Below are positions 1,095 to 22,072 of a stretch of 25,609 nucleotides of DNA, piece after piece. Source of the stretch: a virus. Lineage: Duplodnaviria; Heunggongvirae; Uroviricota; Caudoviricetes. The notes below the pieces were generated by a model. The model saw nothing but the letters and a program-made list of their open reading frames with translations, was not told the DNA's origin and searched no databases. The number at the start of each line of letters is the position of its first letter. Position 1 is the stretch's first letter. Position numbers and translations under genes: made by a program. The stretch is from the IMG/VR virus record IMGVR_UViG_3300045988_034843; one strand, given 5' to 3'.

Positions 1095-1352
1095 ATGCAG
1101 CAGTATCACTATCCACTGGAAGACGGATTTACCGAAAGGATTCACACGCCGGGAGGCGTCAGGTCACTGGTGGAGGGATCGCACTTGATGAAATTACTCC
1201 GGGATCTCGATAAGGATGGATTTAATGTCGATGGCCCACTTGCCGAACTGACTGCACTGATTAACTACGTCACCAGCTCACAGATGTCTATGCAGGATCT
1301 GCAAACACATCTCGACTATTGTGCCGAACAATTACGAAAACAAACCCGGTAA
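1095..1352 (+). CDS. Small (85 aa) protein paralogous to the C-terminal domain of the Ant-like protein at 2503-3159; putative LexA-controlled antirepressor/induction factor
   Basis: Internal ATG of track ORF 972-1352 with GGAGAAG RBS 7 nt upstream; the 972 start would place the LexA box and dyad inside coding sequence; about 50 percent identity by eye to residues ~150-210 of the 218-aa Ant-like protein (IHTPGGV..LMKLL..DG..V.G..AELT...DLQTH). Confidence 0.6.
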   Translation: MQQYHYPLEDGFTERIHTPGGVRSLVEGSHLMKLLRDLDKDGFNVDGPLAELTALINYVTSSQMSMQDLQTHLDYCAEQLRKQTR

Positions 1353-1359
1353 ATTTAAA

Positions 1360-1375
1360 GGCCGCAAGAGCGGCC
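1360..1375. terminator. Hairpin GGCCGC-AAGA-GCGGCC between convergent genes
   Basis: 6-bp GC stem with 4-nt loop directly after the stop at 1352 and overlapping the minus-gene stop at 1375; T-rich on the minus-strand side. Confidence 0.5.
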
Positions 1376-2103
1376 TATCGTTTCGCTTTGTGCTCGTCCC
1401 AGCACGTTTTGCACCATGCCATTAAGCCATCCGCATTTTGATTATTAGGGTAAAAGCTTGTTCGTTTTCTGCGGACATTACAAATTGGGCACCACTTCAT
1501 ATGGCGTGTATTCTTTGGGCCATCGAGACACCTTGCACACCACTTAGTCAATCCATCTGGATTTTTTGACGATTTCCTGAATTTTTCATATGGTAGGTTT
1601 ATTCTGCATCGCAAGCACTGCTTGCTACCACTTGAAACTCTGTTAGCTGATTCTTCTTTTGGCGGCGATACAGAAGGTATTCTTGCTGGCTCTGATACTG
1701 CCTGAGGTGCTTTTTTAGATGACTGAGACGATATGTCATCACCAGGGAATCTTCCATGATATGCCGGACGCGTTGACACTCCAGGTGGAAGCTCAGCTGT
1801 AAACGGCTTTGGCTGAATCAGTTGCCTCTCTTTTGCTAACTCCTGCTGTTTATAATATGTCTGGATTACCGCACTATCATAAGCAGGAGGTGCGGAAATA
1901 TTAGGCGCATTACCTCCAGTTTTTTGAAACTGAGTAGAGGTGTGTTCTATCACCTGTGTACGATTAATCGTTATCTCCCCATCTTCGGTCTTTATCGTTT
2001 TGTTATGATTAACGACCGTACGATCAGAGATCTTAGTCTTGTTCTGGTTGATAACGTAAATAATCACCGCAACCACACCAACAACTATCCAGAAAACTTC
2101 CAT
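1375..2103 (-). CDS. Membrane-anchored protein with tandem C-x2-C-x22-C-x2-C zinc-ribbon-like repeats (242 aa); function unknown
   Basis: Track ORF; N-terminal hydrophobic helix (VFWIVVGVVAVIIYVI); C-terminus has two repeats CLRC...NPDGLTKWCARC and CPIC...NADGLMAWCKTC; GAGGAAAA RBS upstream of ATG at 2103. Confidence 0.7.
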   Translation of the reverse strand: MEVFWIVVGVVAVIIYVINQNKTKISDRTVVNHNKTIKTEDGEITINRTQVIEHTSTQFQKTGGNAPNISAPPAYDSAVIQTYYKQQELAKERQLIQPKPFTAELPPGVSTRPAYHGRFPGDDISSQSSKKAPQAVSEPARIPSVSPPKEESANRVSSGSKQCLRCRINLPYEKFRKSSKNPDGLTKWCARCLDGPKNTRHMKWCPICNVRRKRTSFYPNNQNADGLMAWCKTCWDEHKAKR

Positions 2104-2123
2104 TGCTTTTCCTCACAATAACA

Positions 2124-2138
2124 TTACCTTAAAGGTAA
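2124..2138. promoter_or_regulatory. Dyad operator-like site TTACC-TTAAA-GGTAA (copy 2)
   Basis: Centre 28 bp upstream of the minus-strand ATG at 2103; overlaps a candidate TTGATC-N17-TACCTT promoter on the minus strand. Confidence 0.6.
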
Positions 2139-2216
2139 TATCTTGCTTTCAGGTGATCAAGCGTTAAACGCAATCAACCAAATACGGTTGATTTTAATAT
2201 TTCTTCGCGTTTATCA

Positions 2217-2231
2217 TTACCTTTGCGGTAA
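2217..2231. promoter_or_regulatory. Dyad operator-like site TTACC-TTTGC-GGTAA (copy 3)
   Basis: Same half-sites and spacing; lies in the 400-bp intergenic region between the divergent genes at 2103 and 2503. Confidence 0.55.
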
Positions 2232-2321
2232 ATTTACATTGCACTCCTCTTGTGCCATAGTAATCGGGCACTGGCAAAATCCAGTGCCGGGATTGGTCTC
2301 CCGGATTACTAAGTGGCGCAT

Positions 2322-2502: not shown

Positions 2503-3159
2503 ATGAACGCTCAACTCATCCCCGTATTCAACGGCACTATATCTAACGAAACAGCCCTACTTTGTAATGCCCGCGATCTGCACGCTTTTTTAGGTGTTAA
2601 AAAGGTGTTTGCAGCATGGATTACAAATCGCATATCAGAATACGAATTCATTGAAAATCAAGACTATATTTTGCTTTCCAATTTGGGAAAGCAAACATCT
2701 GGTAGAGGCGGCCACAACCGCAAAGAGTACCACCTCACCCTTGATACAGCCAAAGAGCTGGCGATGGTCGAGCGTAACGAAAAAGGTCGCCAGGTGCGAC
2801 GCTACTTCATTGAATGCGAGAAACGTTTAAGACAACAAGAAACAAAAGTGGAGAAGGTCTTGTCAGGCTTCATGCCCGCCATTATGGAGGCGATCAAGCT
2901 GGAAGACAAAAAAGAATACAGCGCCCCACTGAAGCCCGGCTACCGCAGCCTGATTCACTCGCCGTCTGGTGTTCTCGGCCTGACTGAGAACTCACTGCTG
3001 ATGAATCTGCTGAACCAGTTACAGGAAGACGGGCACGATGTATCTGGCGCGGCGGCGGAGCTGACCACCATGTTCTGCTACATCGTTGGTGTGAGCAAAT
3101 GCCTGCGTGATATCCAGACCCACGCGGAGTACATCAACGACAAGGCAGGGTTCTTCTGA
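2503..3159 (+). CDS. Antirepressor-like protein, AntA-type N-terminal domain (218 aa)
   Basis: Track ORF; GGAGA RBS 7 nt upstream; N-terminus IPVFNG...[10 protein letters not shown]...F..W...RI.EYEF.EN.DY resembles the AntA/AntB antirepressor domain as I recall it; C-terminal third is paralogous to the 85-aa protein at 1095-1352. Confidence 0.7.
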
Positions 3160-3280: not shown

Positions 3281-3607
3281 ATGAGCAGAAGATATGTCAA
3301 GGAGCTGGCTATAGAGTCTGGCACCCCTTTGGGTATCGTTCCTGGCTCCAACTATGCCAAGGCTTTAAACCGAGACTCTGTCGTCAAAGTTATATCAAGA
3401 GACATGAATATGGTCGGAGACGATCTCAGACGGTCAGAAAATCGTGTTTATGCTGAATATATAGTAAAGAACGGAAAAAAAATTGCAGCGCCTGCTGGCG
3501 GAAAATGGGCAATAGTGACAGGGAAAAACTCAAATGCAAGAGGAAAACCAGAAGCTAAAGGAATGTCCTTCGACAAATATGCAAAAATCTATTGGGCAAC
3601 CAAGTGA
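3281..3607 (+). CDS. Hypothetical protein (108 aa)
   Basis: ATG 3281 with GAGG 7 nt upstream (track ORF 3266-3607 trimmed to this ATG); AT-rich, lysine-rich; no motif I recognise. Confidence 0.55.
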   Translation: MSRRYVKELAIESGTPLGIVPGSNYAKALNRDSVVKVISRDMNMVGDDLRRSENRVYAEYIVKNGKKIAAPAGGKWAIVTGKNSNARGKPEAKGMSFDKYAKIYWATK

Positions 3608-4082
3608 TAACGAAGAAACTGAGTTCGAGGAAGTTGAGGAAGGGCTAAGTAACGAGATCATTCAACACCCAGATGCCTTCACAAGAGTTCTTGATCGCCC
3701 TGAAATTCAGGAGATAGTTGTCGCTCACCATGCGTTTCAGGGGCCGCTTCCTCCCCCCTATCTGCTTCGCGGGTATCAGGATATTTTACCTGATGCCCCC
3801 GAACGCATCTTCCAGTTGACGGAGAAGGAGTTTGCTCACCGCCAGAAAATGGAGGAAAAGGCACTTGACGGGGCTATTAATAGAGATAAACGTGGGCAGT
3901 GGTTTGGCCTGAGTGCAACTATTTTTACAGTAGCTTGTGCAACATTATTAGGTTTAACAGGTCATGAAGTTCTAGCTGGCACAGTGATCGGTACAGTTGT
4001 TGCAGTGGCTGGTATTTTCGTTCTTAGACAAAAACCAAGCATCAAGAAGAAATCTGAAGACAACAAACCTGAAGAAAAGTAA
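3534..4082 (+). CDS. Membrane protein with two C-terminal TM helices, possibly DUF2335-like (182 aa; alternative start 3579 gives 167 aa)
   Basis: Track ORF; overlaps the 3' end of the previous gene in another frame; conserved-looking stretch PLPPPYLLRGYQDILPDAPERIF...HRQ then hydrophobic segments FGLSATIFTVACATLLGL and VIGTVVAVAGIFVL; followed immediately by a terminator. Confidence 0.6.
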   Translation: MQEENQKLKECPSTNMQKSIGQPSDNEETEFEEVEEGLSNEIIQHPDAFTRVLDRPEIQEIVVAHHAFQGPLPPPYLLRGYQDILPDAPERIFQLTEKEFAHRQKMEEKALDGAINRDKRGQWFGLSATIFTVACATLLGLTGHEVLAGTVIGTVVAVAGIFVLRQKPSIKKKSEDNKPEEK

Positions 4083-4103
4083 GCCCGCGCTGCGGGCTTT
4101 TTT
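4082..4103 (+). terminator. Rho-independent terminator AGCCCGC-GCT-GCGGGCT + T6
   Basis: 7-bp GC-rich stem, 3-nt loop, T-run 4098-4103, directly after the stop at 4080-4082. Confidence 0.75.
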
Positions 4104-4175
4104 GTGGACGAAACAAAAGTCAGTGCTACACTCATTGACGCCACATTGAGGTGGCTTATAGATGGAAATTTCACA

Positions 4176-4337
4176 ATGAAAAAAGCATTTGCTGCACTGT
4201 TCGTTTTGTTGTCTCTGGTAGCTTCAACTCAGGCCTTTGCCGGTCGTTGTCAGCACGACAGCGACACTGCTGCTGACGGCTCCCGCTGCGGTGGGCGTTC
4301 TGCGGATTCCCGCCCGGGTGGCGGTGGCATTCGTTAA
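4176..4337 (+). CDS. Small predicted secreted peptide (53 aa) with N-terminal signal sequence
   Basis: Internal ATG of track ORF 4104-4337; MKKAFAALFVLLSLVASTQAFA looks like a Sec signal peptide with AFA cleavage motif; mature part Cys/Gly/Asp-rich; weak RBS. Confidence 0.4.
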   Translation: MKKAFAALFVLLSLVASTQAFAGRCQHDSDTAADGSRCGGRSADSRPGGGGIR

Positions 4338-4342
4338 AAACA

Positions 4343-4358
4343 AGGCCGCGAAAGCGGC
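4343..4358. terminator. Hairpin GGCCGC-GAAA-GCGGCC shared by convergent genes
   Basis: 6-bp GC stem with GAAA loop; the minus-strand reading is followed by TTGTTTTT, so it most plausibly terminates the minus-strand lipoprotein gene. Confidence 0.55.
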
Positions 4359-4360
4359 CT

Positions 4361-4372
4361 GTGACATGTCAC
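4361..4372. repeat. 12-bp perfect palindrome GTGACATGTCAC (copy 1 of 3)
   Basis: Exact palindrome abutting the hairpin at 4343-4358; overlaps the stop codon of the lipoprotein gene. Confidence 0.6.
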
Positions 4373-4749
4373 GCAACGCAATTATTACCGCGCCATGTAA
4401 CATTTTTAATAATCTTATCAGCACCAAACTCAACGTAAACAGAGCAACTGAAATGGAGTGTATAACCGCCATCAGTTGTTGCGTATGTGTTTGAATATAT
4501 AGTATTACCAATTAGATTAGACGTAGTATTATACGTTGTGGTTTGTGGTACGTTATAACTACCAGAGCTTGAGTAAACATACACTCTGTTTCCATCTGGA
4601 GATGTAAGCTCTCCCTGAGGATACCCCCACTGCTGAACCATTGCGTCTATACTCTGCCCGCGCCACGTAAGCATATTTCTTTCAAACTGTGCAGCTGACT
4701 GGCATCCAACGAGAAGCATAAATCCAAAAATCAAAAATACTTTTCTCAT
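4369..4749 (-). CDS. Putative lipoprotein (126 aa)
   Basis: Internal ATG of track ORF 4369-4785 with AGGGG RBS; MRKVFLIFGFMLLVGCQSA has a lipobox (LVGC); mature part Thr/Ser/Tyr/Asn-rich. Confidence 0.7.
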   Translation of the reverse strand: MRKVFLIFGFMLLVGCQSAAQFERNMLTWRGQSIDAMVQQWGYPQGELTSPDGNRVYVYSSSGSYNVPQTTTYNTTSNLIGNTIYSNTYATTDGGYTLHFSCSVYVEFGADKIIKNVTWRGNNCVA

Positions 4750-4834
4750 AATTACCCCTATCATGGAAAAACAGCACCAATCCACAAATTAACTAGTTAT
4801 TTTATTATTCTTCCGAACAATACAATTCCGAATA

Positions 4835-20947: not shown

Positions 20948-21036
20948 ATCAATGACTCCGTACGCAATTAAATTATTACCAATTTAACCACATATGATTT
21001 ATTTATCGTAGACAGTTGACATTTAACGCGCGAATT

Positions 21037-21051
21037 ATTACCTTTCAGGTA
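21037..21051. promoter_or_regulatory. Dyad operator-like site TTACC-TTTCA-GGTAA (copy 5)
   Basis: Same half-sites and spacing; preceded by TTGACA (21016-21021) 17 bp before TACCTT; lies between the 20947 minus-strand start and the plus-strand tRNA. Confidence 0.6.
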
Positions 21052-21374: not shown

Positions 21375-21451
21375 GTGGCATTAGCTCAGTTGGACAGAGC
21401 AACCGCCTTCTAAGCGGTTGGTCGCAGGTTCGAATCCTGCATGCCACGCCA
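21375..21451 (+). tRNA. tRNA-Arg (anticodon UCU), 77 nt with encoded CCA
   Basis: Hand-folded cloverleaf: acceptor GTGGCAT/ATGCCAC, D-arm GCTC-AGTTGGACA-GAGC, anticodon stem ACCGC/GCGGT with loop CTTCTAA, T-arm GCAGG-TTCGAAT-CCTGC, discriminator G, CCA; close to but not identical with E. coli argU as I recall it. Confidence 0.85.
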
Positions 21452-21649: not shown

Positions 21650-22072
21650 ATGAAAACAGCCGACATGCTAGCTAAATATCTAAATGAATGGCCGTGCAAA
21701 TATGTACGCATTGTTCAGGGTGATGATTCAATTTTTTATGGTGTTTTTGCAGGAAATGAAATGCTTTGTGAAGCAATTCCAGGTGAGCGACTTGCCGGGT
21801 TAACGCTTAGCGATGACCATGGAATAGGAGTTACTTGCCATGACTGGATTTCAGCGCAGAAAACTGAAATGGAAAAAGGCAATGTGTTTGATATTTCTCG
21901 CGCTGTATACGCCAAAGAAAAAAGTGATGATGATTACATGCGCGAAAACTTATACAACATGAAGTTACAATGCCTGGCTGAAGTGCTTAGTAAAAGATCT
22001 TTACTTGATGTGGTTGGTGCTGAGCAGGACGCCAAGGCAATCAACGCCGCATTCGATAAAATAACCTTCTAA
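21650..22072 (+). CDS. Hypothetical protein (140 aa), opposite-strand insert (moron) between terminase and portal
   Basis: Track ORF; AAGGTGA RBS; AT-rich relative to flanking structural genes; bracketed by terminators; no motif recognised. Confidence 0.65.
   Translation: MKTADMLAKYLNEWPCKYVRIVQGDDSIFYGVFAGNEMLCEAIPGERLAGLTLSDDHGIGVTCHDWISAQKTEMEKGNVFDISRAVYAKEKSDDDYMRENLYNMKLQCLAEVLSKRSLLDVVGAEQDAKAINAAFDKITF

Follow-up and report, generated by a model that had tools for sequence, protein, structure and literature searches.

The subject of this analysis is a gene at positions 1375-2103, on the minus strand, of a 25,609-nucleotide viral sequence (IMG/VR record IMGVR_UViG_3300045988_034843; Caudoviricetes), the whole of which is referred to here as the window. 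Its product is a 242-residue protein in which a single N-terminal transmembrane (TM) helix and a juxtamembrane beta-hairpin are joined by a long, mostly disordered tether to a tandem pair of Cys4 modules, related to those that accompany certain endonucleases. We read it, tentatively and as possible rather than probable, as a single-protein superinfection-exclusion or defense factor whose target may be incoming DNA or the apparatus through which it enters, approached from the cytoplasmic side of the inner membrane, on the basis of its architecture, the kinship of its zinc module and its genome position. The open reading frame (ORF), which begins with an ATG, was recovered at the coordinates given in a preliminary description of this DNA. 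Coordinates of all features are collected in Table 1.

The protein contains eight cysteines only, arranged as C163-x2-C166-x22-C189-x2-C192 and C205-x2-C208-x22-C231-x2-C234. Alignment of module 1 with module 2 scored 69, as compared with 22.6 +/- 4.9 over 2000 shuffles, none of which reached 69, and the duplication of a C-x2-C-x22-C-x2-C unit proposed in the preliminary description was thus confirmed. The eight cysteines were invariant in 28 relatives and likewise in a wider set reaching to Acinetobacter and Aeromonas; other invariant module residues were F175, D183-G184, W188, D225, L227 and W230. In AlphaFold2 (AF2) models both modules were compact, with predicted local distance difference test (pLDDT) values above 90 (86.9 for the modules remodelled alone), and in each a beta-hairpin contained the first CxxC and a helix began at the second. 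The zinc-ribbon label used earlier therefore stands as far as the Cys4 pair is concerned, but the modelled site is closer to a treble-clef or beta-beta-alpha-type site than to a classical two-knuckle ribbon. The modules would be expected to bind zinc. The C-terminal domain is strongly basic (net charge +14, isoelectric point 9.9) and contains near-invariant KSSK and RRKRTS patches.

Searches of profile and structure collections were used to place the modules. The Pfam Stc1 family (PF12898) was matched at 21.0 bits (E = 5e-4), below its gathering cut-off of 24.8, with only the second half of the model matched, and that twice. Because the Acinetobacter relative P0225 passes this cut-off (26.4 bits) and multi-repeat relatives lie clearly above it, the family is placed at the edge of Stc1, whose tandem Cys-rich (LIM-like) arrangement is present here as two confidently modelled Cys4 units with invariant cysteines. 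The only other Pfam matches at E <= 10 were to two RING-type families, with none to HNH or Endonuclease_7. Among PHROG profiles, the modules matched endonuclease VII (EndoVII), HNH and endonuclease families with E-values down to 2e-11; the matched profile positions (45-95 of 271 and 8-52 of 142) belong to N-terminal accessory modules and not to the nuclease core. A match to PHROG 5558 (Lar-like restriction alleviation; E = 2.7e-9) paired residues 201-241 with profile positions 7-47 of 130 only, and the Lar family was not matched in the Pfam scan. A profile search of PDB sequences returned the N-terminal zinc motif of the restriction enzyme PacI (E = 0.08). Foldseek comparison with the BFVD viral models gave 42 matches at E <= 1e-3, mostly to HNH, EndoVII and beta-beta-alpha-Me endonucleases and to phage and giant-virus proteins named 'Stc1 domain' or 'Zn-finger'. 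In distant representatives the module is repeated up to ten times and is accompanied by superfamily 1 and 2 (SF1/SF2) helicase, HEAT and winged-helix (wHTH) domains. The fold, which the preliminary description could not assign to a known phage exclusion protein, can thus be assigned from the Pfam, PHROG, PacI and BFVD matches: the modules are a Stc1-like Cys4 pair of the kind accompanying HNH, EndoVII and beta-beta-alpha-Me endonucleases (PacI, Hpy99I), here in non-catalytic form. Nucleic-acid binding is the most likely activity of the modules, and protein binding is possible.

The single N-terminal TM helix proposed earlier was borne out by a grand average of hydropathy (GRAVY) of 2.36 and by an AF2 helix over residues 3-20 with a pLDDT of about 90. 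Lysine and arginine are absent before this helix and number three to six after it in 28 of 28 sequences, and by the positive-inside rule the predicted topology is therefore N-out/C-in, with two residues in the periplasm and the zinc modules in the cytoplasm, a side that also suits Cys4 metal sites. Within the adjoining hairpin, T39 and G42 are invariant and E43 nearly so, in close and wide alignments alike. The tether (P14, S13, A11, Q8) is rich in Pro, Ser and Gln as the preliminary description had it, and in Ala besides, but not in Thr (T4 only). Its pLDDT was below 50 over much of its length, with a low-confidence helix at residues 77-93 and low confidence from about residue 94 to 158. Across relatives it is 57-100 residues long, at a mean pairwise identity of 17%, as compared with 72% for the TM helix, 57% for the juxtamembrane segment and 70% for the zinc modules. 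The conserved TM/hairpin module probably mediates specific packing or oligomerization.

Uetakeviruses are epsilon15-like temperate podophages, and the window is an epsilon15/phiV10-like prophage of this group. The region shares 94% identity with Escherichia phage TL-2011b, its flanks match phiV10, O157 typing phages 9 and 10, ZX5 and other Uetakeviruses, and a 100% identical copy of the gene is annotated as a coding sequence (CDS) in E. coli TW10722, in a prophage adjoining yfgI. The TL-2011b copy is intact and is entered as a misc_feature; it differs from the window gene in 12 codons (six synonymous, six non-synonymous), and all six amino-acid differences fall at residues 124-160, i.e. in the tether. 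On one side the gene is neighbored by a small gp19-like gene, itself 3' of the tailspike gene, and on the other by a divergent antirepressor gene (AntA domain, 2503-3159). In phiV10 the equivalent of window positions 1353-2226 (terminator, gene and upstream region) is missing with both flanks present (blastn), and several other Uetakeviruses likewise have both flanks without the gene. Two unrelated genes occupy the slot in phage EC.W1-9, which identifies it as a cargo hotspot. These two genes overlap (L094, 1877-2792, minus strand; 168 and 139 residues) and had no Pfam or PADLOC matches, so that they offer no guilt by association.

The full-length gene was present in 129 of 5426 complete E. 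coli genomes, always with the product name 'hypothetical protein'; the exact E. coli protein was found on at least 1000 contigs, and the Salmonella version in more than 1300 index blocks. All 33 close relatives are from Enterobacterales. A profile search of 1.84 billion representatives returned about 45 full-length clusters together with many proteins that have the zinc module only, and a second search extended the family to Salmonella, Morganella, Edwardsiella, Acinetobacter, Aeromonas and Photobacterium. The gene is real, maintained and dispensable cargo, and constitutes a self-contained cassette moving between prophages of many Gammaproteobacteria. Its protein matches PHROG 6762 ('unknown function') over the full length (E = 1.1e-150; residues 1-242 against profile positions 1-242 of 242), with no match in NCBIfam and none at E <= 1 among the component models of PADLOC-DB 2.0, which agrees with the earlier statement that no known exclusion protein could be assigned. 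Database names of the protein and its homologues were 'hypothetical' throughout, with the exception of relative P0208, which was automatically named 'FtsZ-interacting cell division protein ZipA' by the Joint Genome Institute (JGI), probably through its TM and Pro/Gln-rich layout. Literature searches on the protein, its accessions, SF0880, TL-2011b and prophage zinc-ribbon, transmembrane or anti-phage proteins found no study of it. Relatives P0034 and P0050 carry a precomputed Pfam accession, PF27269.1. The homologue of Yersinia phage YeP5 (L101, 1900-2634) has a (TK)n repeat (TKTKTKTKTKTKTKTKT) straight after the TM helix, and its annotated N-terminus is probably too long, the conserved MEIFWIVVG start being internal.

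The contexts of the homologues vary. In Serratia the gene is divergent from a KilA-N/ANT antirepressor and adjoins the gene for an 824-residue internal protein; in Providencia it lies 3' of a gp19-like gene; in a siphovirus-type prophage it is on the opposite strand between tail genes; in Pectobacterium it is directly 3' of a HicAB toxin-antitoxin pair; and in Buttiauxella it is part of a small island that also encodes serine recombinases and a CI-like repressor. In a very common Salmonella prophage it occupies the opposite strand between the terminase and ejection-protein genes, with a promoter-like TTGCAA-18-TAGTAT and no dyad. Two Aeromonas lambdoid phages (a prophage and phiARM81mr) have it 16-19 nt 3' of cI (16 nt in the prophage), the ribosome-binding site lying within this interval and, in the prophage, overlapping the cI stop codon; a strong terminator follows, a PL-like promoter was read beyond it in the prophage, and the upstream gene of phiARM81mr was annotated 'CI repressor' by its depositors. 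This position directly after cI is that of rexAB in lambda. The Acinetobacter homologue is directly 3' of an Arc/Mnt-family gene, which diverges from a KilA-N antirepressor gene, and is beside ejection-protein genes; this matches the P22 map, where sieA, orf59a and mnt are adjacent and next to the ejection-protein genes. In P22, sieA, orf59a and mnt have been carried together on one plasmid (PMC10883804). No second gene travelled with the homologues in the contexts examined. These positions fit an exclusion-type accessory gene and are suggestive of one. Terminator-like hairpins similar to that of the window gene were also found 3' of homologues.

Upstream of the gene, the dyad operator and the candidate promoter that it was said to overlap are both present, but the dyad is one copy of a phage-wide set and is not specific to this gene. 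Operator O1 lies 20-36 nt 5' of the ATG and forms, with a second palindrome (O2), a shared divergent control region. The candidate promoter was read by hand; it was not flagged by a consensus promoter scan, and its -10 element fits at 3 of 6 positions only. A promoter of the same design is located 5' of the homologues in Serratia, Pectobacterium, Providencia and an Enterobacter/Citrobacter/Salmonella group. The window holds seven TTACC-N5-GGTAA sites (six perfect, one with a single mismatch) against 0.34 expected, and the complete TL-2011b genome ten perfect ones: two just beyond the helix-turn-helix (HTH) repressor gene, 5' of leftward genes, one between the repressor gene and a cro-like gene, and the remainder preceding early and other units, including the small terminase gene and two by the gene studied here. 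Prophages of Enterobacter, Citrobacter, Salmonella and Pectobacterium carry 3-4 sites per 10-20 kb (0.01-0.05 expected), one of them at the homologue promoter. No such dyad was found 5' of the homologues in Providencia, Salmonella, Aeromonas, Acinetobacter and the siphovirus. Because phiV10 retains the dyad 5' of its isrK-like RNA without having the gene, and because the sites flank the TL-2011b repressor, the dyad is best read as an operator to which the phage's own repressor would bind, dispersed in the manner of P1, and not as a site for the zinc protein. Since its promoter carries this operator, the gene is probably repressed in a stable lysogen and expressed upon induction or infection. 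Classification as a classic lysogen-expressed moron was rejected as a certainty for this phage, the promoter overlapping the phage operator.

Several further observations concern the operator set and its surroundings. In phiV10 (L002, 5366-5408), at the place where the gene is missing, the operator is contained in a longer perfect inverted repeat, GGAGTGCTTATATTTACC-GCAAA-GGTAAATATAAGCACTCC. In the Enterobacter/Citrobacter/Salmonella group (L069-L074), a second conserved palindrome, TGTGACATGTCACA, stands just 5' of the -35 element, about 50-65 nt upstream of the homologue start; its 4-nt spacer is not the CRP spacing. A perfect TTGACA-17-TACCTT promoter at about 21016-21044 (plus strand), which starts about 25 nt upstream of the operator site at 21038 and overlaps it, is oriented towards a tRNA-Arg(TCT) gene (21375-21451) and a 140-residue ORF (21650-22072) on the strand opposite the late genes. 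Just 5' of the antirepressor gene, isrK (Rfam, 67.7 bits; 2268-2344) and C4 antisense RNA (61.2 bits; 2369-2453) are present in tandem on the plus strand, and the isrK/C4/ant unit is a P1 immI-like or Gifsy isrK-like RNA-controlled ant operon in a Uetakevirus. TTACC-N5-GGTAA dyads precede the majority of transcription units, which suggests that the repressor directly controls many operons in the style of P1; no description of this set was found in the ZX5 paper.

The exclusion reading may be set out as follows. The product would be a bitopic inner-membrane protein exposing two residues to the periplasm, with the TM helix and beta-hairpin as its membrane module, and the tether of about 100 residues would present the strongly basic Cys4 pair in the cytoplasm. 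There, as a second phage genome arrives, the zinc modules would attach to nucleic acid or to the DNA-entry apparatus at its cytoplasmic end, while the TM/hairpin module would place or oligomerize the protein at the entry site, and entry or establishment of the incoming genome would be blocked. A stable lysogen would express the gene at a low level, with an increase upon induction or infection, as for P22 sieA, which is weakly transcribed in the lysogen and rises upon induction (PMC10883804); a repressor-controlled promoter is therefore compatible with exclusion. The basic C-terminal domain, the nuclease-type kinship of the modules, the accessory status of the gene and the exclusion-type positions of its homologues support this account. 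Several points weigh against it. With two periplasmic residues only, the protein would make no contact with an incoming phage outside the cytoplasmic membrane; no similarity to known superinfection-exclusion (Sie), abortive-infection (Abi) or defense proteins was detected (PADLOC; the one Sie-like PHROG match had E = 0.88 and covered the TM region only); and genome position is suggestive only. The promoter overlaps an operator of the kind that flanks the repressor gene, so that the gene may be off in the lysogen, which would be unusual for a prophage exclusion gene. DNA binding is also not assured, since Stc1-type modules can mediate protein-protein contacts, the tandem fingers of yeast Stc1 acting as a protein adaptor (PMC2875855). 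A more elaborate form of the exclusion reading, a one-polypeptide sensor-effector defense in which the zinc modules would serve as sensors of foreign DNA or of the injection-channel tip and signal through the tether, and the TM/hairpin would oligomerize and plug the entry site or depolarize the membrane, is unlikely; if true, it would define a widespread and previously undescribed class of exclusion or abortive-infection proteins carried by gammaproteobacterial prophages.

Two alternatives assign the protein other tasks at the membrane. It might anchor the phage's own DNA during lytic growth, as a repressor-controlled tether for replicating, recombining or packaging DNA, an arrangement modelled on phi29 p16.7, a membrane protein by which phi29 DNA and terminal protein are brought to the membrane (PMC4974454). 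The two proteins have in common a TM anchor at the N-terminus and, beyond a spacer, a nucleic-acid-binding domain at the C-terminus, the C-terminal domain of the protein studied here is basic, and the promoter has the design of the other operator-controlled units, implying expression once the repressor is gone. The gene is dispensable, however, being missing from the close relative phiV10; its homologues occur in phage types unrelated to one another, among them podoviruses, a siphovirus and lambdoid phages, as well as in a small island; co-transcription with cI in Aeromonas is not the site of a replication helper; and no p16.7 family was matched in the Pfam scan, so that we consider this doubtful. 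Sequestration or inhibition of a host division, replication, transcription or protease component by the zinc modules or the TM/hairpin is improbable to a similar degree. The layout resembles that of ZipA (N-out/C-in anchor, basic stretch, Pro/Gln-rich tether, globular C-terminal domain), as the automatic name of one relative reflects, the yeast adaptor role of tandem Stc1-type fingers is a precedent for host-protein contacts (PMC2875855), and the 72% identity of the TM helix is far above the need of a mere anchor; but no ZipA_C or other host-protein-binding domain was found with Pfam, the proteins closest to the modules in sequence and fold are nuclease-associated, and no candidate partner gene co-occurred in any context.

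The remaining alternatives are weaker still. That the 'regulatory component' suggested in the preliminary description is a membrane-tethered transcription regulator, which would bind TTACC-N5-GGTAA for autoregulation and for control of the isrK/C4/ant operon, was considered on account of the dyads at its own start and at the ant-operon promoters, and of similar dyads 5' of the gene in Serratia, Pectobacterium and the Enterobacter/Citrobacter/Salmonella group. The retention of the isrK-proximal dyad in phiV10 without the gene, the ten TL-2011b sites flanking the HTH repressor and preceding early, terminase and other units, which point to the phage repressor as the binder, and the dyad-free homologues make this very unlikely, and autoregulation through the dyad was rejected on the same evidence. 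It is also highly improbable that the protein is a minimal or degenerate membrane-bound beta-beta-alpha-Me nuclease cutting DNA at the membrane, as PacI and the many viral HNH and EndoVII matches might suggest: the Pfam scan gave neither nuclease family, the PHROG matches are confined to N-terminal accessory modules, and by motif reading the spacing from D183 to the cysteines is far shorter than in EndoVII or HNH. No histidine is invariant in the wide alignment (A5), H201 being replaced in relatives from Salmonella, Acinetobacter and Edwardsiella, and an active nuclease core was rejected for want of a conserved one. A virion structural or lysis-related role, although the gene lies between the tailspike region and the ejection-protein genes with a lysis cassette a few kb off in related phages, is the least probable of all. 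The gene is on the strand opposite the late genes with a promoter and terminator of its own, is missing from phiV10 and other viable relatives, and is located in the cI operon in Aeromonas; homology to a characterized structural or lysis protein, which the preliminary description had named as refuting evidence, was looked for with Pfam and PHROG profiles, and no holin, spanin, endolysin or structural family was matched.

Among known systems, the protein resembles P22 SieA in setting: both are prophage-encoded single-gene inner-membrane proteins of short-tailed temperate phages, in the antirepressor (immI) neighborhood beside ejection-protein genes, and the Acinetobacter homologue directly 3' of a Mnt/Arc-family gene parallels the shared plasmid of sieA, orf59a and mnt (PMC10883804). 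SieA has about 162 residues, three predicted TM segments and no zinc domain (PMC10883804), whereas the protein studied here has one TM helix, nearly all of its mass in the cytoplasm and zinc modules; sequence homology with SieA (types A-C) was undetectable, the Sie-like PHROG match mentioned above being the only one. The Aeromonas homologues, right after cI and before a terminator and PL-like promoter, recall cI-rexA-rexB of lambda, but there is one gene instead of two, without sequence or architectural similarity to RexA or RexB, and the window gene is not beside the repressor and has its own operator-controlled promoter. With Stc1-type modules (PacI, Hpy99I; PF12898), often tandem or multi-copy, it shares C-x2-C ... 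F ... DG ... C-x2-C; in contrast to those enzymes it lacks any enzymatic domain, nuclease and helicase included, and is instead equipped with a membrane anchor and a tether. This combination was seen in none of 10 multi-domain Stc1-type representatives scanned with Pfam, and the 150 listed representatives were not screened for TM helices. Both it and p16.7 would put DNA at the membrane, but their DNA-binding folds are unrelated, and p16.7 is a core replication helper of one phage group whereas this gene is mobile cargo in many phage types. ZipA likewise has a short periplasmic N-terminus; no C-terminal FtsZ-binding domain was detected in the protein studied here (Pfam), and the resemblance is architectural and compositional only.

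Table 1. Features of the window and operator sites in the window and in TL-2011b.
Feature	Position	Strand	Basis
CDS of the membrane-tethered twin zinc-module protein, 242 aa + stop	1375..2103	-	ORF list, PHROG 6762, homologues, annotated copy in TW10722
Shine-Dalgarno GAGGA, 6 nt 5' of ATG	2110..2114	-	read from sequence
GC-rich hairpin terminator, overlaps stop codon, also serves convergent gp19-like gene	1359..1376		terminator scan
Residues 3-20, single TM helix (N-out/C-in anchor)	2044..2097	-	GRAVY, AF2 helix, positive-inside pattern, conservation
Residues 25-56, conserved juxtamembrane beta-hairpin	1936..2031	-	AF2 strands 25-39 and 42-56 (pLDDT ~74), conservation
Residues 59-158, Pro/Ser/Ala/Gln-rich mostly disordered tether	1630..1929	-	composition, low pLDDT, variable length
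Residues 159-197, zinc module 1	1513..1629	-	alignments, AF2 models
Residues 198-242, zinc module 2 with near-invariant RRKRTS basic patch and C-terminal helix	1378..1512	-	alignments, AF2 models, PHROG matches to 197-241
Operator O1, perfect palindrome ATTACCTTAAAGGTAAT (TTACC-N5-GGTAA core 2124-2138)	2123..2139		dyad search, motif count
Operator O2, ATTACCTTTGCGGTAAAT, 93 bp from O1, at plus-strand promoters of isrK/C4/ant operon	2216..2233		dyad search, motif count
Candidate sigma-70 promoter TTGATC-17-TACCTT, -10 inside left half of O1	2132..2160	-	hand reading
TTACC-N5-GGTAA sites, window	1004, 2124 (O1), 2217 (O2), 3245, 21038, 24187, 24205		motif count
TTACC-N5-GGTAA sites, TL-2011b (L014)	5172, 5234, 5946, 8227, 8289, 11590, 14819, 33333, 34385, 34478		motif count

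Among the neighboring genes, the 85-residue gp19-like protein (1095-1352, plus strand; homologue of epsilon15p19/PhiV10p24) shares 42% identity (E = 3e-16) with the last 75 residues of Ant, and its gene is preceded by the operator site at 1004. It may be a stand-alone Ant C-domain serving as a second antirepressor or modulator. The stretch 3534-4785, between ant and the gene for the 824-residue internal protein, differs from TW10722 and TL-2011b and carries cargo of its own (3534-4082 and 4104-4337, plus strand; 4369-4785, minus strand), comprising a DUF2335 membrane protein, an ORF with an internal signal-peptide-like MKKAFAALFVLLSLVASTQAFA and an ORF with a lipobox-like LLVGC.

A by-product of this analysis is the P1-style dispersed operator set with an isrK/C4-controlled antirepressor in Uetakeviruses, of which no description was found in the literature searched. 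The zinc module and prophage inner-membrane exclusion proteins were each known already; for their combination, mobile single-gene cargo in which a long tether joins a membrane anchor to a tandem zinc module of nuclease type, no description was found. To our knowledge, few superinfection-exclusion proteins are understood mechanistically, and we know of none among the inner-membrane ones (P22 SieA, T4 Imm, HK97 gp15) with a nucleic-acid-binding domain. Nothing in the evidence would yet surprise a specialist, and if the gene gave no phage-related phenotype it would be merely another uncharacterized phage accessory gene. The candidate is nevertheless well defined and testable: a nuclease-type zinc module joined to a ZipA-like tether, recurring in the rexAB and sieA positions of unrelated prophages and present in prophages of E. 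coli, Salmonella, Serratia, Acinetobacter and Aeromonas, is an easily cloned single-gene candidate for a new mechanism of exclusion from the cytoplasmic side.

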